Positions 9,334 through 63,149 of a stretch of DNA of 64,000 nucleotides are shown piece by piece. The DNA is from a virus (lineage: Duplodnaviria; Heunggongvirae; Uroviricota; Caudoviricetes). How positions within the stretch are numbered: the stretch's first letter is position 1; each line of letters begins with the position of its first letter. The stretch covers positions 93,721-157,720 of IMG/VR virus record IMGVR_UViG_3300037067_009442. One strand, given 5' to 3'. The notes beneath the pieces were generated by a model. That model was not told the DNA's origin, ran no database searches, and saw only the letters and a list, made by a program, of their open reading frames with translations. A program made the position numbers and the translations under genes.

Positions 9334-11017
9334 TGGGAAACCCTAGGCTCAAGTGGACCCTACCATCATCGCTCTGCCAACCCCCGATGCTTGTAGGGCT
9401 CTCGGGAGTATCTACGAAGAGGCTGAACTCAAGCTCAACAGTCCTGACTGCATCCCCTAGGTGATTGGACACTTGACAATGGACACCAAGGTCATTGAAA
9501 AGACCAGCCAAGCGAAGCAAGGTGGCGCTCATCCGATGGTCTTGAAGCCGAGGTGGGAGTCTACTACCTCCCTCAGCTAACCTTCGGTGCTCCTCAGGGG
9601 AGGCGAGTACAGCATCCTCGACCCCTAAGGTTGGGGATGCTGCCGTTATCTGAAGCCTCGTCTCATTACCAGCTGGTCCCACTATGGGCACAGAGCTCAG
9701 CATGAGATTAGTCTCTAATTGAAGATCTTCTTCCGCTGCCCTCTCTGGGGTGAAGTCCATGCGGAGCCCACCGTTCTCTTGGTACTCCCTCACGAGGGAG
9801 CTTCGGGTCCTGACAATTCCGTGAGCTAAGTACCAAGTGGCGTTCTCCCCTACTTGGTAGTGCATCCTCACTGCTTCTCTTTGGCTCATCATCTCGTCGT
9901 TTACTCTCACGAGTGATTCGACATGAGCTCCGTCCCCAAGCCGTTGAATTGCAGCTTGGAAGTTAGGATCCCCACTCAACTGCTGTAGTAGCCCTTGGGT
10001 TAGAGGGGAAGTAGTGACTTCTCGGAGGCGTTGGATCTCTTGAGCTAGTGCAGCTCGGGGTCCATGAAGTTGAGTGCTTGGGACTTGGTTACCAGGGGTT
10101 CCTGGAGCGGGGTGTTGCTCCTCAGTCCACCAAGGGTTGTTGCCGTTTGCAATCCTTTGGTTCATGGCATCTAGTGCAGTACGCTCAGCTTGGGCACCAC
10201 GCTCAGCCTCAATCCAATGAGGTAACCCGCTCTCAATCTCCTGCGTTAGGGTAGCTCGGAGATTGGCCACTGTCTCAGGATTAATTGTAATGCCCCGATC
10301 CCTCATTAGGTTCATGGTGGCAAGGGTACGAGCTTCGAGCTCAGCGTAGTCAACGTTGGGGAGGGATTCGGGTGTGTCTACATCTGGTGCTGACCTAGTA
10401 GACTCCTCAAACTGTTGCTGCAAATGCATCCGTACCCGTGTAATAATGGACTGGTCAACTTCAATGCCCCTCCCTCTTAGCTCATTCAAGTAAGCTTGAA
10501 CGTTCCGCTCGAGCTCGGCGGCGGTCTCACTAGGTAGTGTTTGACTTGTAGGAGGGGCATTAAGGATCTGCTGAAGGCGATCGAGAGCTGCATTTACACT
10601 AGGCTCTTGATTGAGGGCGCTGATAACAGGGTACCCTAAGCGAACCATATCTTCTATCGGCTGCCTCAAACCCCTTCTCTGGATCGCAGTTTCCCAAGGT
10701 CGGATACTCCATGCAAAGCCAGGAGGGAGGGGAGTGTTAGGGATAGGAGTCAGAGTCGCTAGGTACCCCCGAGCATAACGCTCAAGTTCTGATGAAGCAG
10801 GGCCCTGTCCTTGCCCTCGAGTATAGGCATTCCTCAGAAGAGCTGCGGACTCTGAAGGCGCAGAAAAGTCACCCACCTGAAGAGCTGCAGAAGGTGCGGG
10901 AGCATAGCATCGTCGGAGACGGGCAAGCTCAGGGCTGATCTCTTGGGAGATCCCAGGGGGCGCTTCCACGGGAGACGGTCGTAACCCTTCCCAGAACTCT
11001 TCAATGTCTTCCGGCAC
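9320..11017 (-). CDS. large helical hypothetical protein, acidic-W N-terminal family
   Basis: 565 aa; starts MPEDIEEFWE; GTG 10 nt after GGTGTA. Confidence 0.8.
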   Translation of the reverse strand: MPEDIEEFWEGLRPSPVEAPPGISQEISPELARLRRCYAPAPSAALQVGDFSAPSESAALLRNAYTRGQGQGPASSELERYARGYLATLTPIPNTPLPPGFAWSIRPWETAIQRRGLRQPIEDMVRLGYPVISALNQEPSVNAALDRLQQILNAPPTSQTLPSETAAELERNVQAYLNELRGRGIEVDQSIITRVRMHLQQQFEESTRSAPDVDTPESLPNVDYAELEARTLATMNLMRDRGITINPETVANLRATLTQEIESGLPHWIEAERGAQAERTALDAMNQRIANGNNPWWTEEQHPAPGTPGNQVPSTQLHGPRAALAQEIQRLREVTTSPLTQGLLQQLSGDPNFQAAIQRLGDGAHVESLVRVNDEMMSQREAVRMHYQVGENATWYLAHGIVRTRSSLVREYQENGGLRMDFTPERAAEEDLQLETNLMLSSVPIVGPAGNETRLQITAASPTLGVEDAVLASPEEHRRLAEGGSRLPPRLQDHRMSATLLRLAGLFNDLGVHCQVSNHLGDAVRTVELEFSLFVDTPESPTSIGGWQSDDGRVHLSLGFPNARR

Positions 11018-11318
11018 GTCGGGACACTACACCAAAAGGCTCCTCTGTGGTAGGCTCTTCCCCGTGACCACTTCGTGGGCTGAATCAAATTGCAGGGAAT
11101 GCATTCACAAGCCGCACCTTGTCAAGGTTATTGGGGAGTCCTCAGGGTTCTCCACGTGCATCAAGGGGATGCACGTTTACTATTGGTGGCCTTGGGACCG
11201 GTCTGATGTCCCCTTAGAAGTTGAGATAGCACTCCCTGAGGACCGCTCTTGCCCTCACAAGGAGAAGGAACCTCTCACCCGCTTCCAAAGGATCCTCCAA
11301 GAAGATGACAGCCCCTAA
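11004..11318 (+). CDS. four-Cys protein with TRFER tag
   Basis: CRECIH..C..C; ends LTRFQRILQEDDSP*; true start possibly GTG near 11063. Confidence 0.7.
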   Translation: MSSGTSGHYTKRLLCGRLFPVTTSWAESNCRECIHKPHLVKVIGESSGFSTCIKGMHVYYWWPWDRSDVPLEVEIALPEDRSCPHKEKEPLTRFQRILQEDDSP

Positions 11319-11520
11319 CAGCTGCGATGGATGCCTCCACATACCGGCACCCGGCTTTTACAAGGATGGCCTCACCCACTGCCTTGTTCATCGAGAGGTT
11401 CACTACAAGAAGGTGGCAGACGGTACTCACTTTTTTAATCGATCAAACTGGCCCTGTCCTTTCAAGGTAGAACCCAAGACAAGGTTCCAAAGGATCCTCG
11501 AAGAAGATGCCCCTCTGTGA
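11305..11520 (+). CDS. four-Cys protein with TRFER tag
   Basis: CDGCLH..C..C; ends KTRFQRILEEDAPL*. Confidence 0.75.
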   Translation: MTAPNSCDGCLHIPAPGFYKDGLTHCLVHREVHYKKVADGTHFFNRSNWPCPFKVEPKTRFQRILEEDAPL

Positions 11521-11959
11521 TACATGCCAATGGAGGCACCCCGAGAGGGAGAGTGAATACCAGGTCTCTAGGGCAGGCGGTCTTCAGTACCTGTGTTTAG
11601 CCCACCATCGTAGCCCCCTCCTAAGGGCTCTACCAGATGGGACCTACCCAGAGTTCAATCTCTGTGAGGACTATCAGAAGAAGAACTTTGCATGCGAAGC
11701 CTTCAAGTGCAGAGACTGTAGGTATGCCCCTGACTACCCCCTCAAGGGGAGTACCACTAGGACCCCTCAGGACCCTGCCCCTCTCTGGGGACTAGGCTAC
11801 ACGTGTGATCAAGGATATCATGTGAAGCCTACCTGGGATGCCCTACCTGATGGCTCCTACCTATCCACCCTCCTACGTTGGCCCCCTGTAGAGGATGAGT
11901 GCTTCTCCTACCTACCTGTGGAGAGGCTCACTCGCTTCGCTCGTATCTTGGCTGAGTAA
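11507..11959 (+). CDS. tandem four-Cys protein with TRFER tag
   Basis: Two CxxC-led units; ends LTRFARILAE*. Confidence 0.75.
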   Translation: MPLCDTCQWRHPERESEYQVSRAGGLQYLCLAHHRSPLLRALPDGTYPEFNLCEDYQKKNFACEAFKCRDCRYAPDYPLKGSTTRTPQDPAPLWGLGYTCDQGYHVKPTWDALPDGSYLSTLLRWPPVEDECFSYLPVERLTRFARILAE

Positions 11960-12082
11960 CCAAGAGCCCTACAGTTACCCTGCAATGCTAGGCCCTACCC
12001 AACAGGGGTAGTGGCATGAGCCTTGCCTTGTATGCTCTTCCAACTACAGCATACACACGAGCCCTAGTATTACTACACAACG

Positions 12083-12136
12083 CACACACTACACACAGTT
12101 GAGCCCATATAACACAGTGCTTGTGTGTAGTGTGTG
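12083..12136. repeat. 15-bp inverted repeat CACACACTACACACA / TGTGTGTAGTGTGTG
   Basis: Perfect arms at 12083-12097 and 12122-12136 in an ~830-bp gene-poor region. Confidence 0.85.
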
Positions 12137-12792: not shown

Positions 12793-13998
12793 ATGGTCCA
12801 TAGCGTGTCAAGTAGAGGAAAGGGCAAAAGGGAAGAGAGTAGAAGTAACCTCTTAGGTATTGATGTCCCTCACGACCGGTTTTCGAAAAGGGAAGCTACA
12901 AAGTTGGGGGTGTCAATCGAAGACTACCTCAAGGCCAAAGCTTTGGGACAGCGTTACTGTCGCGTCCATGGACTCCAAGACCTCAAGGGGTACAACGTTA
13001 CAGGTAAGAAGGAGACTCACTACCAGTGTAAGAAGTGCGCAGCTGACCGAAAGAAAACTCATCCGGAAGTTTACTCCCGCTTAGCAAGGGAAAGAAGTCG
13101 TAGGGTTCGGAGAGAGGTTCTTGAGCACTACTCCCCAGATTTAGTTTGCTCCATCTGTGGAGAAGGGCACTACGAGTTCCTGTGTTTGGACCATATCAAT
13201 GGTGGAGGGGCAGAGCATCGGAGATCGAGAGGTGACTTCTACTGGGTGAGTTTCAAGAGGGAAGGGTGGCCATCGGGGTTCCGAGTTCTGTGTTACAACT
13301 GCAACCTGAAGCATGGGTGCAGGGACTTCTATGGGACAGGAGCGGTGAACCGAAAGATTTCGGATGACCCTTCAGAGCTCGCGGCCATGACTCCTCGGGA
13401 ACGGGCAAGTGTCCTCTTCAGATTGAGGCACCCAGACAAGATGGCAGAGCACGTCAAGAAAGCTCAGGTGAAGTTGAAGGCGGACGTGATGCTTCACTAT
13501 GGTGGCAAGTGTGCTTGCTGTGGGACTGACGACCTAGAGGTTCTGAGCATCGACCACATCAACAACGATGGGGCTACTCACCGGCGGGAGCTTCGAGCTC
13601 GAGGAGAGAGGTTCAGTTACAACTGGCTGAAGAAGAATGGGTACCCTCCTGGGTTCCAGCCTCTCTGTATGAACTGCAATTCGGCCAAGGGTCACTGGGG
13701 AGAGTGCCCTCATTGTCGGGAGGGTTCTTCGGTTGGACCATCAGAGCGACCGGTTGAGTACCTTCGGACTTCGGAGGCGAGCAGTTTGGCTCACGCAGCT
13801 CGGAGGGATGAGGGGAAGCGGGAGAAGGCCATTCGGGAGTTCTCGGAGGCCTACACGGCAATCCAGAACAGTGGGCCTAGGCAGGTAGCGGCGATAAGTC
13901 GGAGGCTGGGGATCTCTCAGGGTATTCTTACGAGGATCTTGAGGGGGACTCACTGGTCGTGTCGATTCCTGGTTGAGAATCAGGCAGTTGATACGTAG
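12793..13998 (+). CDS. HNH endonuclease with two HNH/zinc modules and C-terminal HTH
   Basis: CSICG..LDHINGGG..HRR..LCYNCN and CACCG..IDHINNDG..HRR..LCMNCNSAK. Confidence 0.8.
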   Translation: MVHSVSSRGKGKREESRSNLLGIDVPHDRFSKREATKLGVSIEDYLKAKALGQRYCRVHGLQDLKGYNVTGKKETHYQCKKCAADRKKTHPEVYSRLARERSRRVRREVLEHYSPDLVCSICGEGHYEFLCLDHINGGGAEHRRSRGDFYWVSFKREGWPSGFRVLCYNCNLKHGCRDFYGTGAVNRKISDDPSELAAMTPRERASVLFRLRHPDKMAEHVKKAQVKLKADVMLHYGGKCACCGTDDLEVLSIDHINNDGATHRRELRARGERFSYNWLKKNGYPPGFQPLCMNCNSAKGHWGECPHCREGSSVGPSERPVEYLRTSEASSLAHAARRDEGKREKAIREFSEAYTAIQNSGPRQVAAISRRLGISQGILTRILRGTHWSCRFLVENQAVDT

Positions 13999-14006: not shown

Positions 14007-15074
14007 ATGGCCGCCCCGAAGTCCAAGCCCTACGGAGTCATCTACCTTGTCACCTGCAAAGTGAATGGCAAGAAGTACGTGGGTCAGACTAAGTTTACTC
14101 TAAAAAAGAGATGGGGAGAGCACCTCAAGAAAACGAAGTCAGGGTGCCAACTATACTTCCATAATGCTATTAGAAAGTATGGGGTAGGTAACTTCAGTTG
14201 CTTGGAGCTTGAGGTATGCCAAAGTGAAAACCTCAATGCAGCTGAGTCCAAGTGGATTGCCTACTACGATTGCCAGTACCCTAATGGGTACAACCTAACG
14301 AGTGGGGGAGAGGTTTTTACCTTCTCACCTGAGGTAGTAGCAAGAATCTCATCTAGTCTAGTTAGATTTTATGCGGAGCACCCTGAAGCTAAAGAAGCTG
14401 TCTCTGTCAGACTTCAAAAAATCTTCTCTGAGTCTCAAGCACGTCAGGATCAATCCCGAAGGATTACTAAGTTCTTTTTGGAGCACCCTGAAGCTAAGGT
14501 AAGTCTATCTAACAGTCTTATTCGATTTCACGAAGAGCACCCTGAAGCTGGTTTGGAGCAATCAAGGAAGCTTACCCACTTCTGGAGTAACTCAAGGGTG
14601 CGGAGGAACCACTCGACTAAGTTACTCAAGTACAATGCAAGTCACCCAGATAAGAGGGGTCGCCACTCTGAAGTAATGCGCAAGATATGCAGTGACTCGA
14701 CTTATAGGAGTAGGTTATCCCTCATTAGCTTACAGTACAATACAAGTCACCCGGAAAAGGGGCACAACCACTCAGTTGTAATGAGAGAGATTGGTACATC
14801 CCTTTCATATAAACGAAAACAGTCCAAGGCTCAAAAGAAATCATACCTTGAACACCCAGAGCGGCATAAGGTAGCTAAGGATAGTTTGGATCGAGGAAGG
14901 GAGACAAGGTGGGGTCAGCATCGATTAGAGCAGGCCTCCAAGCTAGCGGCGGTAAGGGCGGCAGTCGAGAGTCGAGGATCTACCACTCTAGTAGAGATTT
15001 CTACTGAGTTTGGGGTTTCCCTGAGAACTATAGCAAGAATTAAAGACGGAACTCATTGGGTGTGCCATAGGTAG
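14007..15074 (+). CDS. GIY-YIG homing endonuclease (Seg-like)
   Basis: GVIYLVT...KYVGQT...RW.EH...AIRKYG..NF..E...NGYN; repeated EHPEA-type helices; C-terminal HTH. Confidence 0.9.
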   Translation: MAAPKSKPYGVIYLVTCKVNGKKYVGQTKFTLKKRWGEHLKKTKSGCQLYFHNAIRKYGVGNFSCLELEVCQSENLNAAESKWIAYYDCQYPNGYNLTSGGEVFTFSPEVVARISSSLVRFYAEHPEAKEAVSVRLQKIFSESQARQDQSRRITKFFLEHPEAKVSLSNSLIRFHEEHPEAGLEQSRKLTHFWSNSRVRRNHSTKLLKYNASHPDKRGRHSEVMRKICSDSTYRSRLSLISLQYNTSHPEKGHNHSVVMREIGTSLSYKRKQSKAQKKSYLEHPERHKVAKDSLDRGRETRWGQHRLEQASKLAAVRAAVESRGSTTLVEISTEFGVSLRTIARIKDGTHWVCHR

Positions 15075-24311: not shown

Positions 24312-24482
24312 ATGACAGAAATGTCTCCGAATAAGGGCATCATGAAGAACTGGCCCTCGAAGAAGAGAAGGTCTCTCTCAGTCATCAACTACGGTGAGGA
24401 GACTATCTACTATCGACCTCGGAAGTCAGTAGATGGCTTACTGACAAGATTTGAGCGTGTTCTTCGGGGACAGGTGATCTGA
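24312..24482 (+). CDS. 56-aa protein with TRFER tag (not in ORF track)
   Basis: MTEMSPNKG...LLTRFERVLRGQVI*, read by hand. Confidence 0.65.
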   Translation: MTEMSPNKGIMKNWPSKKRRSLSVINYGEETIYYRPRKSVDGLLTRFERVLRGQVI

Positions 24483-24485
24483 TCC

Positions 24486-24677
24486 ATGCCCGACGATCTA
24501 ACCTCACTTGACTCCGAAGTAGAGAAGAGGCTCCTTCACTATCTAGATTTGAAGAAGAAAGGTGGACTACCTAACATCTTCTTTGGGGGTGATGCGTATC
24601 ATGACAAGAGTCATTTCATCAAGAACTCCTTGAGACCTACTCGGTTTGAGAGGATCCTCCGAGGAGAGGTGATCTGA
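24486..24677 (+). CDS. small protein with TRFER tag
   Basis: Ends RPTRFERILRGEVI*. Confidence 0.7.
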   Translation: MPDDLTSLDSEVEKRLLHYLDLKKKGGLPNIFFGGDAYHDKSHFIKNSLRPTRFERILRGEVI

Positions 24678-24678
24678 C

Positions 24679-24960
24679 TTGTTCCTAGACGTACATCAGG
24701 TAGAAGCGGGTCAGACCTGGTACTTCCATGTTCATAGAAGCCACTACCCTATGGAGTGCAGGGTAGTGGCTTCGAACCCATCTACTCCCAATTCTTGGGC
24801 AATGGTAGGATCAGATGGGTCTGTCTTGTACATGCACCTTAGCGCTATAGAGGAAGGTGCATGGTGGCCCAAAGACCCTCCTACTCGGTTTGAGAGGATC
24901 CTTAGCAGCTTATTTGATGGACAGGGTACCGAGATTGATCTACAGGTAGGATCACTATGA
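24679..24960 (+). CDS. hypothetical protein with near-terminal TRFER tag; paralogue of 31284..31517
   Basis: PPTRFERIL then extension; shared SW.M..D....YMH. Confidence 0.65.
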   Translation: MFLDVHQVEAGQTWYFHVHRSHYPMECRVVASNPSTPNSWAMVGSDGSVLYMHLSAIEEGAWWPKDPPTRFERILSSLFDGQGTEIDLQVGSL

Positions 24961-25658: not shown

Positions 25659-26984
25659 ATGACCTCAGACCTTCAGATCGTTCGTCGGGTAGTAGCAAAG
25701 TGGTCGAGCGTAGCCTTCGAATCAAGGTACGCTCGCCTTCTGCTTTCGATGTCCCGAGATCAGGCCAAGAAGATCCTTGGCTTTCCTCCGAACTACGCTC
25801 CCTCGGAGGAGGAGATCAAGAAGAACTACAAGCTGAGGGCTCTTGAAAATCATCCTGATCGGGGCGGTGATCTCGACAAGATGGTTGAGATCAATGTTGC
25901 CAAGGACATCCTGACGGGCAAGGCACAGGAGAAATGGGAGCCCGTACGTGGCCCTACCCCTACTCCGCCGGCACGTACAAGGCCCGAGCCTCCGAAGCGT
26001 CCAGAAGCTGAGTACACGGTGAAGGGGGTGCCCTTTGGTGCAGCTTGGTCTGGGGCTGGGATCCCTAGCGGGACTGATTGGAAGTTTGTCAGTGAGAGGA
26101 TTGACCTATACAGCAAGGGTTTCCCTATGCAACCTGGGTGTGTCCTATACGGGCAAACCAATACTCTCCATGTCTTCTGCGCACTCTTCAAGCAGAAGTC
26201 AACGGCAAATGTATGGCCTCCAACCGACGAGAAGGGTAGGGTCTTCGAGGTTGAAGATGGTTGGAGAGCCCAAGTTGTTACTGTCCCTATTGCCAAAGAC
26301 GTAGCGAAGATAGCTACTAAGGCAATCAAGCAAGTGGTTTCGGACCTACCCGAGCCCGGACCTGGTAGTAGTGGGACCCCCAAGAAGTACATTCTTTGGC
26401 CTGAGAACGGTGGGAACCCTACCGAGGCTTACCTTGAGAAGATCCCTTATCGTGGGAGGTATTCTCTGAAAGAGGTTCTGGTTGTAGCGGGCCTGGTCAA
26501 GTTGGATGAGAACAAAGCCCTCAAAACACCGGCCATCATCGACTTCTACGGTAAGGTGAACAAAGAGAAGCTTCGAGCTCGACCTCGAGGGATCCTCGGG
26601 AGTAGCGGAGACTTCTTTCTCATCATCGACGGTAAAGAAATCAAGCTCGAAGATGAGACTTGTGACAACATCACCAGGAGCTTCTTCCTGATCGCCGCTC
26701 TCAAGAACTTTGAGTACAACAAGGTCTACCGATTGAATCGATTGAAGGCAGGTGGCTTCTTCAAGGGCGGAGCAGGGCTTGCTTTCAAGTTGCTCTTCGA
26801 TAGCATGACTACGGAACCCTCTTGGGTGAAGGATGCTCTTGAGAAGAACATGGAGCTCTTCAAGGATCCCGAAGAGAAGACAGCTTCGGTGCTCCTTGAC
26901 TTGTGTGCTGACATGTCCCTAAGGCAAGCATCGGTCGCTACTGGGATCCCGATGAGTGACTTGATGCTAATGATCTACGAATGA
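25659..26984 (+). CDS. J-domain (DnaJ-like) protein with long unknown C-terminal region
   Basis: AKKILG...EIKKNYKLRALENHPDRGGD...INVAKDIL (HPD motif); GAGGAGG SD upstream. Confidence 0.85.
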   Translation: MTSDLQIVRRVVAKWSSVAFESRYARLLLSMSRDQAKKILGFPPNYAPSEEEIKKNYKLRALENHPDRGGDLDKMVEINVAKDILTGKAQEKWEPVRGPTPTPPARTRPEPPKRPEAEYTVKGVPFGAAWSGAGIPSGTDWKFVSERIDLYSKGFPMQPGCVLYGQTNTLHVFCALFKQKSTANVWPPTDEKGRVFEVEDGWRAQVVTVPIAKDVAKIATKAIKQVVSDLPEPGPGSSGTPKKYILWPENGGNPTEAYLEKIPYRGRYSLKEVLVVAGLVKLDENKALKTPAIIDFYGKVNKEKLRARPRGILGSSGDFFLIIDGKEIKLEDETCDNITRSFFLIAALKNFEYNKVYRLNRLKAGGFFKGGAGLAFKLLFDSMTTEPSWVKDALEKNMELFKDPEEKTASVLLDLCADMSLRQASVATGIPMSDLMLMIYE

Positions 26985-28250: not shown

Positions 28251-28988
28251 CTAGATCCCGACGATTTCCTTCCATCGGTTGATGACCATTTCCGTGTAGG
28301 GGATCGATGGTGTTCCGTAGCAGCCTAGGGCCCAGGCATCGTTGACTTCAACGAGGAGGGTCTTGCCCATATCTGTGATCCCTAAGTCGAGGGAGTACCC
28401 ACAGGGAGCCTCCTTGAACTTACTGATCATAGCTTTGGCGACATCCATGTCTGGAAATACAGTGCAGTCCCCCTTGTAGTGACGGCACGCAAGGATGCTC
28501 CCTCGGTGGACAAGGACTCGGTACTCTGAGATGAAGTTGACGACCTCAGATTCCCAGGTAGGAGATTCATCCCAGAAGGTGTTCACATTGAGAAGGTTAT
28601 TGATGCTTCCCGTGTAGATAAACCCATTGAAGAGCTTGGTCCCGCCCCTGGGTTTGACAAAGATTGGTTGGGAAGTCTTCCGTTGACGGAGAGCACCTAG
28701 GGTCGAGGTATTGATCCATCGACCGAGGAAATTCTCAAGGCTTGTGGGGTAATCCAGGATCTCTGGGATTGGAACTTCAAGGCAGTTGAGAGCGGCAACG
28801 GTGAGGGGGATACCGGCGTAGACGAAGGTGTTCTTTGCTAATTCCCCTTGAATATCCTTAGTGGACGTATACAGGGTCGACTCTATGCCCAGTGCCCAAC
28901 AGCCGTACCAGACGGCAAAGGCAGTCTCGTCTAGGGGCATCTTGGTGGTGAGGGACGCTTGGATGAAGGCTTTCTTGATACCGAGCAT
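28251..28988 (-). CDS. ATP-grasp protein, R2K/DUF4343-like
   Basis: IFVKP, SEVVNFISEYRVLV, YSLDLG, LLVEVNDAWALGCYG. Confidence 0.8.
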   Translation of the reverse strand: MLGIKKAFIQASLTTKMPLDETAFAVWYGCWALGIESTLYTSTKDIQGELAKNTFVYAGIPLTVAALNCLEVPIPEILDYPTSLENFLGRWINTSTLGALRQRKTSQPIFVKPRGGTKLFNGFIYTGSINNLLNVNTFWDESPTWESEVVNFISEYRVLVHRGSILACRHYKGDCTVFPDMDVAKAMISKFKEAPCGYSLDLGITDMGKTLLVEVNDAWALGCYGTPSIPYTEMVINRWKEIVGI

Positions 28989-40413: not shown

Positions 40414-40974
40414 GTGATGATTACCATCGAGTTTAACCTGAGGGTAGATCTCCCTCCCGGTCCGATAGTAACCCAAGGGACTCGAGGTGAGGTGAGGGAG
40501 AACCCGGACCTATGTAGTAGGGTATTCGAGATTATTCGGGATCCGCCATTTGTGAGAGACGGGGACCATTACTTCAACCGAGTAATACCATACCTCATGC
40601 AAAGGTTCCCTAGTACCAGCTACAAGCTATGTTGCTGGGACTATGAGACAGGGAGCACCCCTGAGGGTAATGCTTGGGTGATTGAACATGTAGCTCCTGA
40701 AGAGGCTGCCTTGGACGGGAGCCCCTGTTGGGATTGCGTCAATGAACCAGAGAAGTATCTTTTCAAGGATGAGGTAGTACGAGATAGAGCTGGGTTATCA
40801 CTTCACGGATCTTACTTGTGCAGGGATTTTGAATGGACTAAACCTGGTTGGAGAGACGTGGGCGGTGGGGATTGGAAGTACAGTCTCTTTCGGACCTCAG
40901 TAGCCCCCTGTCCTAGGTTTCAGCGAAGGTATCTCCCTACTCGATTTGAGAGGATTGTCGATGATTCGTTGTAG
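40414..40974 (+). CDS. two-domain protein ending in four-Cys module and TRFER tag
   Basis: CWDC..C..CPRF; ends LPTRFERIVDDSL*. Confidence 0.75.
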   Translation: MMITIEFNLRVDLPPGPIVTQGTRGEVRENPDLCSRVFEIIRDPPFVRDGDHYFNRVIPYLMQRFPSTSYKLCCWDYETGSTPEGNAWVIEHVAPEEAALDGSPCWDCVNEPEKYLFKDEVVRDRAGLSLHGSYLCRDFEWTKPGWRDVGGGDWKYSLFRTSVAPCPRFQRRYLPTRFERIVDDSL

Positions 40975-41287
40975 GCAGTGCTGGCATTGCCCTCAGGGCG
41001 CTCCGCTTGAATTTAACATCGACAGCTCTCCCGTAAAGGTGAGTAAGCTTGAAACCCGTATTCGCCGTATTCTGCACCTTAAACCAAGACCCGGTGACCA
41101 CTGGAGAGGTGTCTGCAAGAAGGGGATAGACATCTACCTCTTCTGGTATACCTCGGTAATGGGTACTGAACTACAGAAGTACAGCTCCATACTAAGGACA
41201 GTCTCTGTTGGGGAGTGTCCCCACTTTGAACTACCTAAACCATCTACTCGATTTGAGAGGATCCTAAGGGATGATGACGCCCTGTAG
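40961..41287 (+). CDS. four-Cys protein with TRFER tag
   Basis: CRQCWHCP..CKKG..CPHF; ends STRFERILRDDDAL*. Confidence 0.75.
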   Translation: MIRCRQCWHCPQGAPLEFNIDSSPVKVSKLETRIRRILHLKPRPGDHWRGVCKKGIDIYLFWYTSVMGTELQKYSSILRTVSVGECPHFELPKPSTRFERILRDDDAL

Positions 41288-41558
41288 TCGGTGCATCCAT
41301 TGCCCTCCCACTCCATCTAGGGGGCTCCTAGTGACCCTCGAAAAGGAGGGGGTCCTAGAGGATTGGGAAGAGGACTGTGAGGCTGGAGAGCCCACTTACC
41401 TCAAATGGTACTCAGTACCTAGCCTGAATTTATGGGGTTGCGTAGTAGCCCCTCGAAGGGTAGATCCTAATAAGTGTCAAGGGTTTACTCCCGCAAGGCC
41501 CCCAAATAGGTTTGATAAGATCCTAAGAGGGGATGACTACCTCTTTGGTTTGGAGTAG
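41271..41558 (+). CDS. four-Cys protein with TRFER-type tag
   Basis: CSRCIHCP..CEAG..CQGF; PNRFDKILRGDDYLFGLE*. Confidence 0.75.
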   Translation: MMTPCSRCIHCPPTPSRGLLVTLEKEGVLEDWEEDCEAGEPTYLKWYSVPSLNLWGCVVAPRRVDPNKCQGFTPARPPNRFDKILRGDDYLFGLE

Positions 41559-43192: not shown

Positions 43193-43603
43193 ATGCCTGA
43201 CAAGATTGCTACTGCCGAAGACATTCAGAATGAGATCCGAACCCTTTGGGCTATGACCGAAGAAGAGGCCCCAAGTCGGGAGAAGTTGGCGGCGGCTCTT
43301 ACCGACTTGGCTGAGCGGGTAGCAAGAGGTGATTCACCTGATGTTGATGACCTCAAGAAGAGCATTGAGGTCCTGACTAAGCTGAAGAAGGATCTCAGTA
43401 GGGTCCTGTGGTCTGAGGGCGGTATTCCCAATGCTCTTGTCTACCACTCATTGCTAGTGAAAAATGCCCCTAACGCAGACAAGCTAGAGAAGGCATTCTC
43501 TGCCTGGCATGTCACTCGTGGGTTAGCAGAAGTGCGGCTTGATGAATTGCTCATGGAGTTGGAGACCCTCCAAGAGACCATTCCTGAGCAGTCTAAGCCC
43601 TGA
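43193..43603 (+). CDS. protein with KIA...PSR.KLA...RVA N-terminal module
   Basis: First ~45 aa align with 37033..37362. Confidence 0.7.
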   Translation: MPDKIATAEDIQNEIRTLWAMTEEEAPSREKLAAALTDLAERVARGDSPDVDDLKKSIEVLTKLKKDLSRVLWSEGGIPNALVYHSLLVKNAPNADKLEKAFSAWHVTRGLAEVRLDELLMELETLQETIPEQSKP

Positions 43604-44360
43604 TAACCCTCTTATGATCAGCGGGCAGGAGAGCTTCTTGCCCGCAGCGGTTACACGAGCCCATTGAGAGAACGGCCTGAGTAAGCTCTTCATTGGAACT
43701 ATCGACGGTTCCAATAGGAAAGCAGAAGCGGCTCTCACCGGCGGAGACTGTTCCATCGTGAGAGATGGAGGGGACGCAGAAGCCGGACTTCCCGAGTGAC
43801 CCTCGGATCCGGAGAGCCTTGATTGCTTCGGGTACCGACCGGAAGTGATGAACCATAGAGCGGAAGTTGAAGCTGCTGGGGGCAGCTCGGGGGTTCAATC
43901 CCTTGGGGTCAAATTTAGGGTTGGCGGCCCTTCCAATGGTGGACAGCAGAGAGAGCTGGTCGACATAGAAAACGTTCTTGTGCTTGAACGTAGGAGGCTT
44001 CCTAGGGTAGTACCGAGCGTCATTGGTGACTTGAACTAGGACACCCCAGTCCTCCCGGAGAAGTTCTTTCCGGAGCGCCTCATTGTCGAGCCAGAGGCCA
44101 TGAGTTAAGATCATGGGGATCCACTTACGGTCAATCACCTGTTTGACCATCTCCACAATGTCTGGGTTGTCAGTGCATTCCCCGCCGGAGAGGAGAATCA
44201 TTGTAGGGATCCCTGCTCGAGTAGCTTCGCACTCGGCTCGCTCGGTGAAGCTGAGGGCTCGCTTGAATGTATCGAGGCTCATGTGCTCGCCGGAGGGTGT
44301 TGCATCCTCGAGGCAATGTGAACAGCCCATTTTGCATGCTGACGTTGTTTTGATTAACAT
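43593..44360 (-). CDS. radical SAM protein with C-terminal Cys cluster
   Basis: CKMGCSHC (CxxxCxxC), LSGGE, LTHG; C..DGTV...IG...C..C tail. Confidence 0.85.
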   Translation of the reverse strand: MLIKTTSACKMGCSHCLEDATPSGEHMSLDTFKRALSFTERAECEATRAGIPTMILLSGGECTDNPDIVEMVKQVIDRKWIPMILTHGLWLDNEALRKELLREDWGVLVQVTNDARYYPRKPPTFKHKNVFYVDQLSLLSTIGRAANPKFDPKGLNPRAAPSSFNFRSMVHHFRSVPEAIKALRIRGSLGKSGFCVPSISHDGTVSAGESRFCFPIGTVDSSNEELTQAVLSMGSCNRCGQEALLPADHKRVIRA

Positions 44361-48886: not shown

Positions 48887-49342
48887 TTGACTCGATGCAG
48901 GAGCTTGTGGCAAGCTCCCGATATGCCGTCTTTTGAGAATCCCTTAGATATGGTGTGCGCTGTTTTTCAGCACGCCCGTAAAACGGGTCACCACTTCGGG
49001 GTATTTCCAAAGCCTAAATGGGTAGGGGTTTGCTGTGAGGACTGTCTCGAGGATATTGCGGAGTCCCACAATAGTAACTACCTAGCTCCGGCATCTGGGA
49101 TGATCTATGTACCAGATACTCACTTCCTCCATCCTTACTTGGCGACTCCAGCAGGCTTAATCACCCTCTGTGATAGGTTGAACGAGGGCTCTAAGGAGGC
49201 TCTTTTACAGGGTTTCTCAAAGGGTGGGTTTGCTTACGCGGTCATGCAAATGCTACTCAACCGTGTAAGCTCCGAGGCTCTACCTAACTTGGATCTCCAC
49301 CAATTCGTCCCCACTCGCTTTGAGAGAGAAGACGTGATCTGA
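48887..49342 (+). CDS. hypothetical protein with TRFER tag
   Basis: Ends VPTRFEREDVI*. Confidence 0.75.
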   Translation: MTRCRSLWQAPDMPSFENPLDMVCAVFQHARKTGHHFGVFPKPKWVGVCCEDCLEDIAESHNSNYLAPASGMIYVPDTHFLHPYLATPAGLITLCDRLNEGSKEALLQGFSKGGFAYAVMQMLLNRVSSEALPNLDLHQFVPTRFEREDVI

Positions 49343-49659: not shown

Positions 49660-50004
49660 ATGGCCTGTCACTCAGTAGTATTCCCTAGGTTTCAGGAAGA
49701 CGTAGTTTCCAAAAAACGGACCTTGTATCACGAGCCTCTAGGGGAGACCGGGGGGCTCGAGGTTGGGGATAGGTTAATCCTAACGCCCCATGAGTGCTTC
49801 CCTAGAGGGGTTGCAACGGTGGTGACAGCAATAGACCGGGTGCGACTGAAGGAGCTTCCAGAGGCCGACCTAGAGAAGCTGGCAGTAGGTTCCCGGGAGG
49901 AGTACTTGTCCCGATGGGATGCAGCCTTCCCTCACGAATCTTCGTCTGAGGATCCTCAAGTATGGAGAATCGAGTTTCGGTATCTACGCCCTGATGAGTT
50001 CTGA
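49660..50004 (+). CDS. ASCH/PUA-like domain protein
   Basis: GD.L.L...V.AIDRVRL.EL..........W........VWRIEF. Confidence 0.5.
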   Translation: MACHSVVFPRFQEDVVSKKRTLYHEPLGETGGLEVGDRLILTPHECFPRGVATVVTAIDRVRLKELPEADLEKLAVGSREEYLSRWDAAFPHESSSEDPQVWRIEFRYLRPDEF

Positions 50005-50324
50005 TGCCCTACCATGAGTATGACACTGCCGAGAAGATGATTGATGACATGACTCATCACATCACCCTGGAGAGACACCTGATCTCTAGCGGTGTTCGAA
50101 TTCCGGAGAAGGCTGATAGGAGTCAGAGGCTGGTCGGATTCCATTGTACTGGATGTGAGCAAGCTTGGGCCATGCCCGCCTCTCATCTTGCTAGGGATCT
50201 TGAGGGTGAGTATGCCTACCTGCTGAAGGCTACCGGTCGAGGATACTTATTCAACGCCTTGAATGAACTAGCTAAAGTACCATCCCCAACCCGATTCGAG
50301 CGGATCCTTCTCGCCGATTGGTGA
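50004..50324 (+). CDS. hypothetical protein with TRFER tag
   Basis: Ends SPTRFERILLADW*. Confidence 0.7.
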   Translation: MPYHEYDTAEKMIDDMTHHITLERHLISSGVRIPEKADRSQRLVGFHCTGCEQAWAMPASHLARDLEGEYAYLLKATGRGYLFNALNELAKVPSPTRFERILLADW

Positions 50325-51107: not shown

Positions 51108-51590
51108 ATGCCAGACCCAATGGATCCAAACGAAAACCTTCGAGAGCAACGTGAAATAACCAAACGTCTTCTCGATGAAGATCTTGAAGGGGACGTTGAT
51201 TCGATAATGACCTTGAGCATCAGGCTTGCAGAGCTTGTTCAAGCTCTGGACGAGTGGATCTCCCATCAAGGGGAGCTGCCTAGAGACTGGTGGAATGAGG
51301 TACCTATCCAAGCCCTAAGGGCAAACCCTACAGACGGGTATAACTATGATGAGGTGTACAGGTTGATCCTCATCGAGTCGGGCCCTAATCGAATCCAACT
51401 TTGGAGGCTTCTCCGAAGTCTTCGTGACTACACCCTCCAAGACGTCCGCCGGATAACCGATGCCTTACCTTGGATCTATGGGTCTGAATTTGGTGGTGGC
51501 GCTGTGAATGAACTTCGAGCAATGTTCGAAGGAATCGGAGCGGTTGTTAGGGTAGAGTTGATGACTCAGACTCACAACCCTCTAGTGTAG
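51108..51590 (+). CDS. protein with C-terminal ribosomal L7/L12-CTD-like domain
   Basis: YRLILIESGPNRIQLWRLLRSLRDYTLQDVRRITDALP...LRAMFEGIGAVVRVE follows the bL12 CTD pattern. Confidence 0.6.
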   Translation: MPDPMDPNENLREQREITKRLLDEDLEGDVDSIMTLSIRLAELVQALDEWISHQGELPRDWWNEVPIQALRANPTDGYNYDEVYRLILIESGPNRIQLWRLLRSLRDYTLQDVRRITDALPWIYGSEFGGGAVNELRAMFEGIGAVVRVELMTQTHNPLV

Positions 51591-51870
51591 CTAAGATTCG
51601 TTCAAAGCGGGTGGCTATCACAGCCACTGGGTAATAAGAGCACCGGACTAAGCCCTCCCCTGGTAGTTGATGTCGATAGGGCAGTGCTTGGTAATGAGCT
51701 CCTACTCGAAACCAACCCACACTCAGGTTGTACCCTTTAGTACAAGGGTACACAACTTTTTCATCGATAGGTACGATGTTCACTTCCATCACTATGGCCC
51801 CCTTGAGGTGGTAGTTTTGAGGGCAGTGAGGGCAATCGTCACAGAGTGTTGTCACTGAGGATCCGTTCAA
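51547..51870 (-). CDS. four-Cys protein with TRFER tag
   Basis: CDDCPHCP..CTKG..CSYY; ATRFERIL plus extension. Confidence 0.7.
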   Translation of the reverse strand: MNGSSVTTLCDDCPHCPQNYHLKGAIVMEVNIVPIDEKVVYPCTKGYNLSVGWFRVGAHYQALPYRHQLPGEGLVRCSYYPVAVIATRFERILATLEGCESESSTLP

Positions 51871-52183
51871 AGCGGGTGGCTGGTGGTGAGTCTGTTTGTA
51901 CTATGTCTTTTCTCGGGCGGGAGAATTTTAGTACCCAAGGTCGTCCATTAGAGTGAACTTGGTCGAAGCAAGTGATCTCCCAGCTACCCGTGGGAAACTG
52001 TCGTTTCAGGAAGTAACTAACTTTCTCCAGGTAGTACTCAGGGACTCCGTACATCGACCCCTCTTGGAGTAAGCTTTGAATCCTTTCCCCAACCCCCGGG
52101 GGTGTTGGATGGATGTACTCAAAAACAGGGGGACCACCTTCTTGGAGAGTAAACCCGACCTCAAATGGTCCCCAGGAGGTCAA
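51839..52183 (-). CDS. hypothetical protein with TRFER tag
   Basis: Ends ATRFERILSDNTL*; WEITCFD similar to neighbour. Confidence 0.7.
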   Translation of the reverse strand: MTSWGPFEVGFTLQEGGPPVFEYIHPTPPGVGERIQSLLQEGSMYGVPEYYLEKVSYFLKRQFPTGSWEITCFDQVHSNGRPWVLKFSRPRKDIVQTDSPPATRFERILSDNTL

Positions 52184-52521
52184 ATGACTTCCTCCCGCTC
52201 GAATCGAGTAAGGTACTTAGGTTGAGTGACAGGCTTCTGTTTCCTAGGTGCCTTGGGCGGCTTTGTCAGATCAGGTTGAGTGAAGTTGAGGGTATAGTGG
52301 TAGCCAGCTACATCAACGCAAGTGATCTCAAAGTTCTCTTTTCGAATCCATGAGTCGAAGTACTGCTGGATTCGTAGCATATAACCCCTAGCACCCCTAT
52401 TAGGCCCAGCATAGTCAATTACATCCTGAAGCTGATTCTGCCTGCGGTAAGGGCGCCCCGCACTAGTAGCCGTTAGCTGGTGAGCTCCTGATTCCTCTAA
52501 GGTGATGACTACCTTAATCAT
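52180..52521 (-). CDS. hypothetical protein with TRFER tag
   Basis: Ends LTRFEREEVI*. Confidence 0.75.
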   Translation of the reverse strand: MIKVVITLEESGAHQLTATSAGRPYRRQNQLQDVIDYAGPNRGARGYMLRIQQYFDSWIRKENFEITCVDVAGYHYTLNFTQPDLTKPPKAPRKQKPVTQPKYLTRFEREEVI

Positions 52522-52775
52522 ATCACATCTTCTCTCTCAAACCGGGAAGGGCGGTGGCAGTTGTACTGAGTACAAATCCTACCTACGGGCCATACACGGA
52601 GAAGGTAAGGACCTTTGCCCTCGATTCGAGTGTACCATTGCCTGGTTTTCACCCCTAATCCGCAGCGAGTTAGTTGAACGTGGGTGAGGGAGTACTCGTC
52701 TGTATCACTACCCTCCACTTTTCGGTGAACGCAGGTGAGGCAGAACTGGGGATCTATCTTTGGGAGGTCTGCCAC
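52518..52775 (-). CDS. four-Cys protein with TRFER tag
   Basis: CLTCVH..CGLG..CTQY; ends PSRFEREDVI*. Confidence 0.75.
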   Translation of the reverse strand: MADLPKIDPQFCLTCVHRKVEGSDTDEYSLTHVQLTRCGLGVKTRQWYTRIEGKGPYLLRVWPVGRICTQYNCHRPSRFEREDVI

Positions 52776-58355: not shown

Positions 58356-58592
58356 CTACTCGGAAGCTAAGATCTTTTCGAATCTTGTAGGTCTCGGACC
58401 GCGGTAATACCTCTCCTCAAAGGAGGGGCAAGTGGATGCATCTACTGAGTTGAGTAGTTGAGGGTGATCTAGATCCAGGAATAAAGAATGAATCTTCCAG
58501 CGGCGATGCCCCTTAGGACATTCTACTGGAGGCGGGGGCATCATGAAGATCTGAGCCCCCGGAAGATGCTTGCAGTTACTACAGATGCTCAT
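58356..58592 (-). CDS. four-Cys protein with TRFER tag
   Basis: MSICSNCKH..CPKG..CPSF; ends RPTRFEKILASE*. Confidence 0.75.
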   Translation of the reverse strand: MSICSNCKHLPGAQIFMMPPPPVECPKGHRRWKIHSLFLDLDHPQLLNSVDASTCPSFEERYYRGPRPTRFEKILASE

Positions 58593-58791
58593 CGGATAGG
58601 ATCTTTTCGAACCTTGTAGGTCGGTCCCCACTATAAAGGTACTTCCCGCAGAGCTCAATACCCTGAGGGTAGGTATGTAATCCCTTCGTTTGGTCAAAGG
58701 TAACCAAGGTTGAGTGACCCACCCAACAGGAAGTACCATGTGTACTTAGGGGGTCCTTGTACTCGCAGTCGTCACAGCAAACTTGAGTCAT
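58579..58791 (-). CDS. four-Cys protein with TRFER tag
   Basis: CDDCEY..CWVG..CGKY; ends RPTRFEKILSDEHL*. Confidence 0.75.
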   Translation of the reverse strand: MTQVCCDDCEYKDPLSTHGTSCWVGHSTLVTFDQTKGLHTYPQGIELCGKYLYSGDRPTRFEKILSDEHL

Positions 58792-59147
58792 TACACGACG
58801 TCCTCACGCTCGAAGCGAGACAATCGAGGGGAGTCAATATTCTCGATTATTGAAGGATCATTCGTTTCTAATCCGAACCTCAGACAGTAGGTAGCCCCGT
58901 CTAACTTGACGAACCTCAGTACAAGATGAGGTAAGGCCCACCTAAGTGACAAAGCGGTGATGGAGTTGATCAGGTAGTCATCTGGAGTAAGTCGAACAGG
59001 TCCTCGGTACCAGTTTGCTACTAGCTCTCGAAGAACACCCTCGACGACCCCAGGGTCTAAACTCCCTGGGGTTTCGTCTACCTCTACCGATACCAAAGGG
59101 GATCCGTCTTCACTCCCACCCTCAGCGATCCAAATGTAGTAGGTCAA
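58791..59147 (-). CDS. hypothetical protein with TRFER tag
   Basis: Ends LSRFEREDVV*. Confidence 0.7.
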   Translation of the reverse strand: MTYYIWIAEGGSEDGSPLVSVEVDETPGSLDPGVVEGVLRELVANWYRGPVRLTPDDYLINSITALSLRWALPHLVLRFVKLDGATYCLRFGLETNDPSIIENIDSPRLSRFEREDVV

Positions 59148-59374
59148 AACTCGTCTTCCAAAACTCGTTCAAAGCGAGTAGGTCTAGGTCCGCAGTAAGC
59201 ATAGTCTGAGCACGTTGAGGAAGACTGCCCCTCATTGAAGAGGTTTTGGTTAGCGTGGAGTCCAGAATCCAAGAATCTTACAAGAAAGTACCCGCGATTA
59301 CAGGCTAACTCCCCTGTCCTAGTCTCTAGGCTCCACTTGCAGTCATCACAGAAGTCCATCAGGGTCGGTAGCAT
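59144..59374 (-). CDS. four-Cys protein with TRFER tag (start uncertain)
   Basis: CDDCKW..CNRG..CSDY; ends RPTRFERVLEDEF*. Confidence 0.7.
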   Translation of the reverse strand: MLPTLMDFCDDCKWSLETRTGELACNRGYFLVRFLDSGLHANQNLFNEGQSSSTCSDYAYCGPRPTRFERVLEDEF

Positions 59375-59780: not shown

Positions 59781-59784
59781 CCCG

Positions 59785-60069
59785 ATGCCAACTAAGGAAG
59801 AGATAACTGAGAGGCAACTAAAGCACTTCCGTAAGACAGGGCATGTCCCGAAACTTGTCCGGGACAGGGCCCTCAATCACCTTGGAGTGGCTTGCTCTAC
59901 TTGCTCCAATAACACTGATTGGGAAGTGATCTCGGTTGAACAAGCTCTTGCCCTTCACCCTAGTGGTGAGGTTGTTCAGATTTACTTGGAGGTGCTAGAT
60001 AAACTGAAGCCGCCTCCGGAAGTGGTACCTGACTCGCCTACTCGGTTCGAGCGAGAGGACGTCATCTGA
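59785..60069 (+). CDS. hypothetical protein with TRFER tag
   Basis: Ends SPTRFEREDVI*. Confidence 0.75.
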   Translation: MPTKEEITERQLKHFRKTGHVPKLVRDRALNHLGVACSTCSNNTDWEVISVEQALALHPSGEVVQIYLEVLDKLKPPPEVVPDSPTRFEREDVI

Positions 60070-61152: not shown

Positions 61153-61181
61153 TTGAGATCTGAGCTCCTCAACCGTAGTAT
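61153..61181 (+). promoter_or_regulatory. sigma70-type promoter, leaderless
   Basis: TTGAGA-N17-TAGTAT; ATG 61187. Confidence 0.8.
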
Positions 61182-61716: not shown

Positions 61717-61745
61717 TTGAGATCCGAGAGTCTCGTACGTAGTAG
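61717..61745 (+). promoter_or_regulatory. sigma70-type promoter, leaderless
   Basis: TTGAGA-N17-TAGTAG; ATG 61751. Confidence 0.7.
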
Positions 61746-61750
61746 TTACT

Positions 61751-62176
61751 ATGACCTACGTAACTCCGTCGACAGAAGCTGGTTGGAAAGCCTTAGCTCG
61801 GAAGCTCGGATACGGAACTAACGTCGCAGCCCTGAAGAAGGACTCTCAGGAGACAGATGCGATTCTCAGTGAGGTTGAGACTGAAGAGAGACTCCTCAGT
61901 CAGATTGAGGTTATTGAGGAGGAAGCCCAGGATAAAATGGGAGTTCTTGCTCTCGAGTTCCGTACCAAGGTTCTCATTCCCTTCTGTCGTAGGTACAACC
62001 TAACCTTCAAGGCAGGCATGGGGAGCTATGTCTTTGTCGACTCTAAGGGGGAAGTTGATTACGGTGATGAAGAGCGCCCCTGGATCAAAACCATGAGTGA
62101 GATGTTGGACAACTCGGCGATGAGTCAGTCCTTTGGCTCTTGGTTCGAGGACATCACGATTGAAGACCTGGTGTAG
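61751..62176 (+). CDS. hypothetical protein, paralogue of 47076..47405
   Basis: Shared C-terminal domain; both have own promoter. Confidence 0.75.
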   Translation: MTYVTPSTEAGWKALARKLGYGTNVAALKKDSQETDAILSEVETEERLLSQIEVIEEEAQDKMGVLALEFRTKVLIPFCRRYNLTFKAGMGSYVFVDSKGEVDYGDEERPWIKTMSEMLDNSAMSQSFGSWFEDITIEDLV

Positions 62177-62583
62177 TAGGTAATACATGTCAGCCCCATG
62201 GGATCCTAGCTGGCAGTGGGAGTTTGCTCCCGATATTCGTTGAAGGGCTTTATGCCATCAGAACCAGATGACCTAAGGGATACCGGCTGTCTATTCACCT
62301 TGGTAGAGTTCGAGGATAAGGCTCAAGAGTTTGTCCACCTAGTCTCGAAGTTTACCTCCGATATTGAATGGGAGGTTCGAGAGGGGGTCCCTGAAGGTTT
62401 CCTCCCTGTCTTGGACTGCAAGGAGACTCCCAATTGGTCTGTAGTGGCTTGGCCAAAAGGGCGCCCCGGGTACATGCAGGCCTATATGGATCTCCTTAGT
62501 ACCTTAGGTTACCTGCAAGAGTTGATTGAGCTCCCTTCAGTCAAGTTCCCTCTTGAGGTAGTTCCTTGTTGAGAGGTTAGGGT

Positions 62584-62883
62584 ATGAAACTTCACCCCGA
62601 AACTAACAGCTCAGGTCAAATTCAAGGATTCTCCTTCTTCTGCCCTGGGTGCGGTCACCTACACATTTTCTACACGACAGGCCCTCTCATTTGGAGCTTT
62701 GATGGTAACCATGAGAGCCCAACGTTCTCTCCTTCTCTCCTGAATACTTGTGACAACCACCCTGACTCTAAGCAGCGTCGGTGCCACCTGAACCTAACAG
62801 CGGGGAAGTTGGTGTTTCATGGGGACTGCAGCCATGATAAAGCAGGTCAAGTTCTCGAGCTCTTGGATCGGCTACCTGAATGA
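62584..62883 (+). CDS. DUF6527-like protein
   Basis: FFCPGCG..H...WSFDG..ESPTFSPSLL...CH...G...F..DCSH...GQ. Confidence 0.8.
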   Translation: MKLHPETNSSGQIQGFSFFCPGCGHLHIFYTTGPLIWSFDGNHESPTFSPSLLNTCDNHPDSKQRRCHLNLTAGKLVFHGDCSHDKAGQVLELLDRLPE

Positions 62884-63149
62884 TCTTCTGTAGTAATTGC
62901 AAATGGGCCCCAGCAATGCCCGAAGTAGGGAATGGAAAGCCTTACTCAGGGAAGTGCTCTCAGGGTTTTGACGTGAGTTACCGGAACATTATCAGGGACT
63001 TGAGAAGAAAACCAAAGTACCGACTGGTCAGCTTTGGGAGTACATGTCACCTTCGGAAGTCCAAGCTTTCTGAGTTTACTCGGTTCGACAGGCTTCTTGC
63101 GGATGACTCCTATTTATTCGGAGAGGGCTCTAAGTCTAGAAAAGACTAG
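62880..63149 (+). CDS. four-Cys protein with TRFER-type tag
   Basis: CSNCKW..CSQG..CH; FTRFDRLLADDSYLFG. Confidence 0.7.
   Translation: MIFCSNCKWAPAMPEVGNGKPYSGKCSQGFDVSYRNIIRDLRRKPKYRLVSFGSTCHLRKSKLSEFTRFDRLLADDSYLFGEGSKSRKD

Follow-up and report, generated by a model that had tools for sequence, protein, structure and literature searches.

Paralogous binders that share a hub-docking motif are known from the poxvirus ankyrin/PRANC proteins and from the ClpX adaptors, such as SspB with its C-terminal ClpX-binding tail. In Bacillus phage G, a lineage-specific expansion of about 35 zinc-ribbon proteins has been described (Iyer et al. 2021, PMC7824862). Here we describe a family of small four-cysteine proteins that end in a C-terminal tag and are encoded in a 64,000-nucleotide stretch of a Caudoviricetes genome (the window), corresponding to positions 93,721-157,720 of the 228,619-bp virus record IMGVR_UViG_3300037067_009442 (51% GC). 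This virus and phage G are alike in being huge phages with dozens of small, diverged Cys4 proteins of no established function. They are set apart, going by the description of phage G, by the classical two-knuckle ribbon of the phage G proteins and by the phage-wide C-terminal tag, which was not reported there. Expansions of small zinc proteins in jumbo phages are already published (PMC7824862), whereas a family with the present cysteine layout coupled to a phage-wide tag is not, and full-text literature searches for the tag sequence found nothing.

We consider it probable, though not strongly so, that these proteins are binding heads of varied surface, probably clamped by a metal, which share one docking helix at the C terminus. 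Each would comprise a domain of 57-105 residues pinned by four cysteines (an N-terminal CxxC knuckle and two lone cysteines), a short Pro-rich linker of about 9 residues joining the head to the tag, and the genome-wide tag as the docking helix. The paralogues stem from tandem duplication, are translated in coupled chains and each have a surface of their own that orthologues conserve; the different heads would most likely all plug through the tag into one common putative receptor. The genes encode small cytoplasmic phage proteins that form one lineage-restricted family.

The initial annotation had listed 12 open reading frames (ORFs) with a four-cysteine pattern and a terminal tag, and all 12 translated accordingly. 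The family pattern was M-x(1-4)-CxxC-x-[HWYF]-x-P, followed by W-x(2,3)-C-x-x-G-[HYF], C-[PS]-x-[FY] and, at the end, (R)P-[TSN]-R-F-[EQDA]-[RK]-I-L. An alignment of 45 rows was assembled from 12 units of the window, three others of the genome, 13 from a 512-kb phage (G001) and 17 homologous metagenome proteins (labelled P00xx below). Cysteine occupied the four positions (C1 to C4) in 44, 44, 45 and 45 of the 45 rows, while mean column identity was 19%, and the glycine of the CxxG at C3 was nearly invariant. The residue two positions after C2 was H, W, Y or F, and that following C3-x-x-G was H, Y, F, W or aliphatic; neither variable aromatic position is a conserved ligand, and the site therefore has four cysteines. 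The spacing was C-x2-C-x(10-44)-C-x(15-39)-C over the 45 sequences, with mostly 25-33 residues between C3 and C4 (median 29), 7-15 between C4 and the tag (median 9), and a total cysteine domain of 57-105 residues. These regular spacings indicate a fairly regular scaffold in which large inserts are taken by the C2-C3 loop only.

That the members form one highly diverged family on a fixed scaffold, as first proposed, was supported by the 45-row alignment, hidden Markov models (HMMs) and an external profile. With the tags trimmed, BLASTP linked no member to any other, indicating that the members are truly far apart. In leave-one-out searches with HMMs lacking the tag, 10 of 17 units were recovered at E ≤ 0.02, together with one recurrent weak non-member. 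A tag-free profile built from outside sequences only found 11 ORFs of the genome at E < 1e-3, and all 11 were tagged, compared with 54 tagged among 2,643 open frames. As judged from these profiles, the family is more than a cysteine pattern plus a tag. One further ORF of the genome (181453-182259) was considered as a member and rejected, its cysteine layout being different and the profile missing it.

The members in the window, and the tagged genes that stand among them, are given below with the E values obtained with the tag-free profile.

11004..11318 (+): family member 1, 104 amino acids (aa), 27-aa N-terminal extension, tag TRFQRIL (external profile, E 1.3e-7)
11305..11520 (+): family member 2, 71 aa, tag TRFQRIL (E 0.41, borderline by sequence)
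11507..11959 (+): family member 3, 150 aa, two fused four-Cys units, tag TRFARIL (E 2.2e-11)
40414..40974 (+): fusion protein, 186 aa, N-terminal domain and C-terminal four-Cys unit, tag TRFERIV (E 0.029, marginal)
40961..41287 (+): family member, 108 aa, longest C2-C3 loop (44 residues), tag TRFERIL (E 2.9e-9)
41271..41558 (+): family member, 95 aa, tag NRFDKIL, tail DDYLFGLE (E 5.9e-14; orthologue P0005)
51547..51855 (-): family member, 102 aa, GTG start, tag TRFERIL and a 14-residue tail (E 9.2e-7; orthologue fragment P0009)
51839..52183 (-): tagged protein without the cysteines, directly upstream of 51547, homologous to the N-terminal domain of 40414
52518..52775 (-): probable family member, 85 aa, other tag form SRFEREDVI (E 0.32, borderline by sequence)
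58356..58592 (-): family member, 78 aa, tag TRFEKIL, corrected start (E 6e-5; orthologue fragment P0023)
58579..58791 (-): family member, 70 aa, tag TRFEKIL (E 2.9e-5; P0015 is 62% identical)
58791..59147 (-): tagged non-family protein (SRFEREDVV), interleaved in the array
59144..59359 (-): family member, 71 aa, tag TRFERVL, corrected start (E 1.7e-8)
62880..63149 (+): family member, 89 aa, tag TRFDRLL, long tail (E 2.5e-9)
63103..63180 (+): 25-aa tag-only mini-ORF (start, linker and tag) behind 62880, tail identical to P0018

Five starts were corrected by analogy within the family and by upstream stops (40961, 51855 with GTG, 58592, 59359 and the ATG at 41271), after which the products began M-x(1-4)-CxxC. 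The ORF at 58356 as first read (127 aa) had overlapped the gene at 58579; the corrected product has 78 aa. The proposed two units within 11507 were borne out by P0002, an identical metagenome protein with two matched stretches, and only the second unit carries the tag. Likewise, the C-terminal unit of 40414 was matched by P0006 over residues 102-184, and the N-terminal domain of this fusion is homologous to the separately tagged 51839 protein. Member 11004 has a metagenome orthologue (P0003) of equal length that is 95% identical. By cysteine pattern, array position and tag, 11305 and 52518 are probable members. The mini-ORF at 63103-63180 is what remains of a deleted member of the array, given that its tail is identical to that of the metagenome member P0018. 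The tagged protein at 58791-59147 was compared with the 51839 domain and found not to be related.

The tag consists of [TSN]-R-F-[EQDA]-[RK] followed by IL or EDV(I/V), lies 2-18 residues before the stop, and was found in 25 ORFs of the window; in all 12 listed ORFs, [TSN]-R-F-x-[RK] stood no more than about 25 residues before the stop. In the whole record, 45 ORFs bore the strict pattern as compared with 0-6 in shuffled sequences, and 54 a slightly relaxed one; a fifth of the small proteins of this virus share the tag. Of these tagged ORFs, 54 or more in all, about 30% belong to the four-cysteine family with its about 15 members. At least 40 others, unrelated to the family, also end in the tag; they reach lengths of about 270 aa and mostly lack cysteines. 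Between copies, the tag codons (T, R, F, E, R, I and L) differed synonymously, indicating selection on the tag peptide rather than on a DNA or RNA motif and ruling out a nucleotide-level repeat or regulatory site. A Pro-rich linker of about 9 residues, often with GPRP, precedes the tag.

In both AlphaFold models described below, the tag was helical and was the region of best confidence (predicted local distance difference test, pLDDT, 76-89). Under established helix rules, T-x-x-E is a classical capping box, and F, I and L of F-x-x-I-L come to lie on one hydrophobic face. The tag would accordingly be a short amphipathic helix. The forms ending RIL and REDVI/REEVI were both present, and within one orthologue group (P0007 versus P0033) REEVI replaces RILGD, indicating that the two forms are interchangeable. 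The claim that members always end in the tag was correct in the present genome. In the 512-kb phage, by contrast, the tag of two members is lost or degenerate, and a third member carries a frameshift. A second, smaller family of tagged Cys proteins, with H-x-RKTGH followed by CxxC and then the tag, was also seen in the window (48887-49342, 50004-50324 and 59785-60069, +).

Gene positions bore out the tandem clustering noted initially. Seven of the 12 family genes start 14-17 nucleotides (nt) inside the upstream tagged gene; thus, 11305 starts 14 nt inside 11004, and 40961 starts 14 nt inside 40414. The start codon of the next gene lies within the D-[DE] codons, 3-4 residues past the IL of the tag, and the (E)RI codons supply an AGGA-type Shine-Dalgarno sequence about 10-12 nt upstream of that start.

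11277-11320, 11479-11520, 40939-40974, 41246-41287, 51839-51877 (-) and 58579-58617 (-): tag-coding sequence that also serves the following gene as ribosome-binding and start region

The overlapping starts and the AGGA within the tag codons indicate that the arrays are translationally coupled. Fused forms retained a single, C-terminal tag. This was the case for the two-unit protein 11507, for P0013, for P0017 and its orthologue in the 512-kb phage (L040:5191-5607), and for the domain fusion 40414. That fused forms lose the internal tag is the strongest argument for a tag that functions solely at a free C terminus, one per chain.

The initial annotation had also called the loops between the cysteines hypervariable and had likened the family to an effector or anti-defence repertoire. 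The variability was confirmed between paralogues; in length it was marked in the C2-C3 loop only, and orthologues conserve their loops. Indeed, orthologue groups drawn from the metagenome proteins and the 512-kb phage were conserved over their full length, loops included (for example P0007/P0026/P0027/P0028/P0033, and P0019/P0030/P0031/P0032 with the copy in the 512-kb phage). Ratios of nonsynonymous to synonymous substitution (dN/dS) against the 512-kb phage were 0.16 and 0.30 for two pairs, values that are rough since dS was saturated; the radical S-adenosylmethionine (SAM) gene considered below gave 0.12. The hypervariability therefore reflects old divergence of paralogues rather than an ongoing arms race, and a repertoire under diversifying selection was not borne out, the orthologues being under purifying selection. 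Isoelectric points (pI) of the domains ranged from 4.7 to 9.9 (median 6.4), with a median net charge of -1, and this wide range suggests that the surfaces are varied.

The structure of the head was modelled twice. AlphaFold with a 12-row alignment gave a pLDDT of 55, and a second run on 59144-59359 with all 45 rows gave 64 and a predicted template modelling score (pTM) of 0.41; in the second model the cysteine and tag zones reached 65-77 and the middle loop stayed below 50. No fold match was returned by Foldseek against the PDB or by an exhaustive VIA-align wide search, both run with these low-confidence models. Given the low confidence of the models and the lack of a fold match, we can only infer the fold and the metal. 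With four invariant cysteines in a phage protein of the cytoplasm, a Cys4 metal site is the natural interpretation, and from the pattern it would most likely hold one Zn(II).

Known cysteine folds were compared with the family. The best match in the PDB profile search was the second finger, of LIM/treble-clef type, of the mitoribosomal protein mL90 (7aoi_BX), which was not significant (E 0.065 over 43 residues). Both have a CxxC knuckle, about 17 residues with a Trp, and then a Cys; LIM domains, however, have eight Cys/His ligands where the family has four, and with no Pfam LIM match or significant profile match the family was not assigned to them. A classical zinc ribbon has two knuckles (CxxC / CPxC), each on one of the two beta-hairpins of a three-stranded sheet, whereas the 45 sequences have one CxxC, with C3 and C4 each alone (C-x-x-G and C-[PS]-x-[FY]). 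WhiB-like [4Fe-4S] proteins have the spacing C-x(14-22)-C-x2-C-x5-C. The family spacing given above does not agree with it, and no Pfam match was obtained.

The distribution of the family was narrow. When 1.84 billion representative proteins were searched with a profile, 24 matched at E ≤ 1e-3, all of them small tagged proteins except for one unrelated zinc-repeat protein, and a second search of 5.8 billion clusters added eight proteins, for a total of about 30; these eight had no Pfam domain and no name beyond "hypothetical". The DNA pattern of the tag occurred in viral contigs in nine stretches on six contigs, including a complete 512,571-bp phage with terminal repeats, the 512-kb phage of the alignment, and a 145-kb fragment. 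The complete phage encodes at least 15 family members, with a run of five on one strand and a run of three on the opposite strand, and about a third of its tag matches are again family members; the 145-kb fragment gave tag matches only. Whole arrays outside the present genome were thus found in one other phage, and P0007 and P0031, when searched in viral contigs, led only to it. One of its members (L040:7785-8018, about 34,785-35,018 of G001) has lost the CxxC knuckle because the reading frame shifts within a run of C, so that it is a recent pseudogene unless the shift is a sequencing error; the intact form is the metagenome protein P0014. The 512-kb phage also encodes a third tagged family with the layout CxxC...ATR...CDxH.

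The members mapped to no known family. No match was found in Pfam for 10 members at E ≤ 1, in PHROGs for all 45 aligned members, or, by tblastn of one member, among 50,697 GenBank phage records; the PDB profile search gave no significant match, the ESM Atlas returned only unnamed viral clusters, and a metagenome scan with the 40414 protein found nothing. Megablast of 20 kb from the window against the same GenBank records was likewise without a match. In bacterial genomes the tag DNA pattern matched 40 times, as compared with about 50 expected by chance on our own estimate; nine of these matches were C-terminal and in frame, and none accompanied a four-cysteine domain. Matches at chance level without the domain provide no lead to a host. 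The family is restricted to two huge phages plus fragments. Short ORFs ending in PTRFERIL plus 1, 3 and 4 residues were noted on contigs L052, L059 and L068 of bacterial metagenome-assembled genomes (Cytophagales, Omnitrophota), and these may be mis-binned phage fragments.

Several points weigh against variable heads on a common docking helix. Both models were of low confidence (pLDDT 55 and 64, pTM 0.26 and 0.41). C4 is often followed by Pro, as in ferredoxins, and the data do not distinguish zinc from iron or an Fe-S cluster. Two listed members, 11305 and 52518, were insignificant by sequence alone (tag-free profile E 0.3-0.4). Longer fused forms were looked for, and none joined to an informative domain turned up, which is weak evidence; purifying selection between orthologues runs contrary to the arms-race flavour of the word repertoire. 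The putative receptor could be a host machine, to which the proteins would bring targets as adaptors, or a phage structure, with the proteins as cargo for one destination.

One candidate for a tag reader is a J-domain protein of 441 aa (25659-26984, +), which would pass its clients to the host DnaK. It was 71-73% identical in both related phages, and its gene directly follows three consecutive tagged mini-genes (24312-24960, + upstream) and a DUF4419 gene.

In a bolder form of the docking model, the four-cysteine heads would be a target-recognition library of the phage, routing proteins of the host or of rival phages to a single hijacked machine; we regard this as unlikely. The family would then be the equivalent, in a bacterial virus, of the F-box/PRANC substrate receptors of eukaryotic viruses, and no such family has been described in phages before. 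With the F-box-like poxvirus ankyrin/PRANC proteins and SspB the family would share variable binders with one terminal docking motif into a single hub, yet it has no sequence similarity to either, and the likeness is an analogy of logic rather than membership; the tag system bears no sign of degradation or ubiquitin-like chemistry.

Huge phages carry hundreds of small genes annotated without a function, and about 15 here share the head-linker-helix plan. If the plan is true, a single tag receptor would give function to dozens of genes at once and would uncover a new mode of organising the takeover of the host by phages. The heads, probably zinc-stabilised and tolerating a loop of 10-44 residues, may also offer protein engineers a minimal binder scaffold. 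Should the tag merely mark proteins for packaging or turnover, the family would still be a new example of gene-family expansion in giant phages.

Two other explanations are about equally improbable in our estimation, each a little below the recognition library. Under the first, the proteins are sequence-specific nucleic-acid binders, an expanded set of zinc-finger proteins for transcription or DNA structuring, with the tag contacting RNA polymerase, the sliding clamp or another DNA-bound platform. Small Cys4 domains are often nucleic-acid binders, and two family tails (DDYLFG..) may resemble T4-type clamp-binding ends. The weak profile resemblance to the second LIM finger (E 0.065) and the precedent of roughly 35 zinc ribbons in phage G, for which such a role was proposed (PMC7824862), point the same way. 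However, the domains are not consistently basic (pI and net charge as given above), the same tag is borne by many proteins without a zinc motif, and no helix-turn-helix or other DNA-binding signature was found with Pfam or PHROGs.

Under the second, the tag is a packaging address and the four-cysteine proteins are virion cargo, effectors injected with the DNA against host defences. The C-terminal position dependence and the single tag per chain would suit an address label, and many small early-type ORFs are tagged. The capsid-targeting signal of T4, however, is N-terminal and cleaved, the present proteins have no protease site, and at least 54 tagged ORFs would make a very large cargo list. 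This explanation is in any case a sub-case of a common receptor rather than a true contradiction of it.

A third possibility, that the proteins are small iron or Fe-S redox proteins of rubredoxin or ferredoxin type rather than zinc-clamped binders, is considerably less probable than either. It would account for the four invariant cysteines and the frequent Pro after C4, and there is a nearby gene for a radical SAM enzyme, which requires reducing equivalents. A single electron-transfer job is nonetheless hard to square with about 15 paralogues so strongly diverged, neither the second CxxC knuckle of rubredoxin nor the CxxCxxC...CP motif of ferredoxins was present, and the tag also occurs on proteins without cysteines.

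The initial annotation had offered ribosomally synthesized and post-translationally modified peptides (RiPPs) as an alternative. On that reading, the family members would be enzyme-matured precursors, the tag a follower peptide for a radical SAM or ATP-grasp enzyme, and the cysteine part cross-linked or extended. Both enzyme genes that it had pointed to are real, and are listed as context only.

28251..28988 (-): ATP-grasp protein of the R2K clade (PF18299, 135 bits, E 2.2e-39, above the gathering score)
43593..44360 (-): divergent radical SAM protein, 255 aa, CxxxCxxC at residues 9-16

The radical SAM protein scored 24.9 bits in Pfam, below the cut-off of 29.5. Its C-x12-G-x4-C stretch and later CxxC recall the auxiliary-cluster domains of twitch/SPASM type; the full seven-cysteine SPASM motif was absent. 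It was 66-71% identical in both related phages, a further point in favour of this alternative. All NCBIfam maturase models scored far below their cut-offs (26 bits against 380-500), and since the protein starts directly with the core, it has no N-terminal recognition domain. In the 512-kb phage it lies about 100 kb from the main array, and remote homologues of 25% identity are encoded by two other phages, Bacteroides phage BS-TP1 and an uncultured one of 462 kb, where a search for the tag and the family found neither, the two related phages serving as positive controls. Precursors of the prochlorosin type have an N-terminal leader, short cores and a dedicated maturase. The family resembles them in its many diverged cysteine products with one conserved recognition sequence in one genome, and differs in its C-terminal tag, which large unrelated proteins carry as well, its domains of 57-105 residues and the lack of a linked maturase. 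Neither a short core with precursor-specific recognition nor a linked maturase with a recognition element was found. R2K enzymes are predicted protein or peptide ligases that join amino acids to proteins (PMC7824862), and the homologue in the 512-kb phage is 34% identical and far from the arrays. With the tag on at least 54 ORFs, many of them large (up to about 270 aa) and mostly Cys-free, with "cores" that are conserved as domains between orthologues, and with a radical SAM enzyme that is distant, without a recognition domain, unlike known maturases and present in phages lacking the tag, we put this alternative very low, as the least probable of all.

The window as a whole is densely filled with short ORFs and contains no tRNA gene. 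Few of its genes could be named, these being HNH and GIY-YIG endonucleases, DUF4419, the J-domain protein, a nucleotide-sugar epimerase, the R2K ATP-grasp and the divergent radical SAM protein. The HNH and GIY-YIG endonuclease genes lie side by side (12793-13998 and 14007-15074, +) downstream of the first four-cysteine array, and are possibly homing elements beside a duplication-prone region. Tagged proteins of the phage end in acidic tails, and the R2K ATP-grasp is a predicted protein-modifying ligase. Upstream of the radical SAM gene in the window is a gene for a 318-aa Cys-rich protein with a weak RING-like match (44370-45326, -). The upstream neighbour in the relative G002 is a directly adjoining gene for a tagged 176-aa protein, and in G001 a homologous tagged protein of 174 aa is encoded upstream, with one ORF of about 120 aa between.

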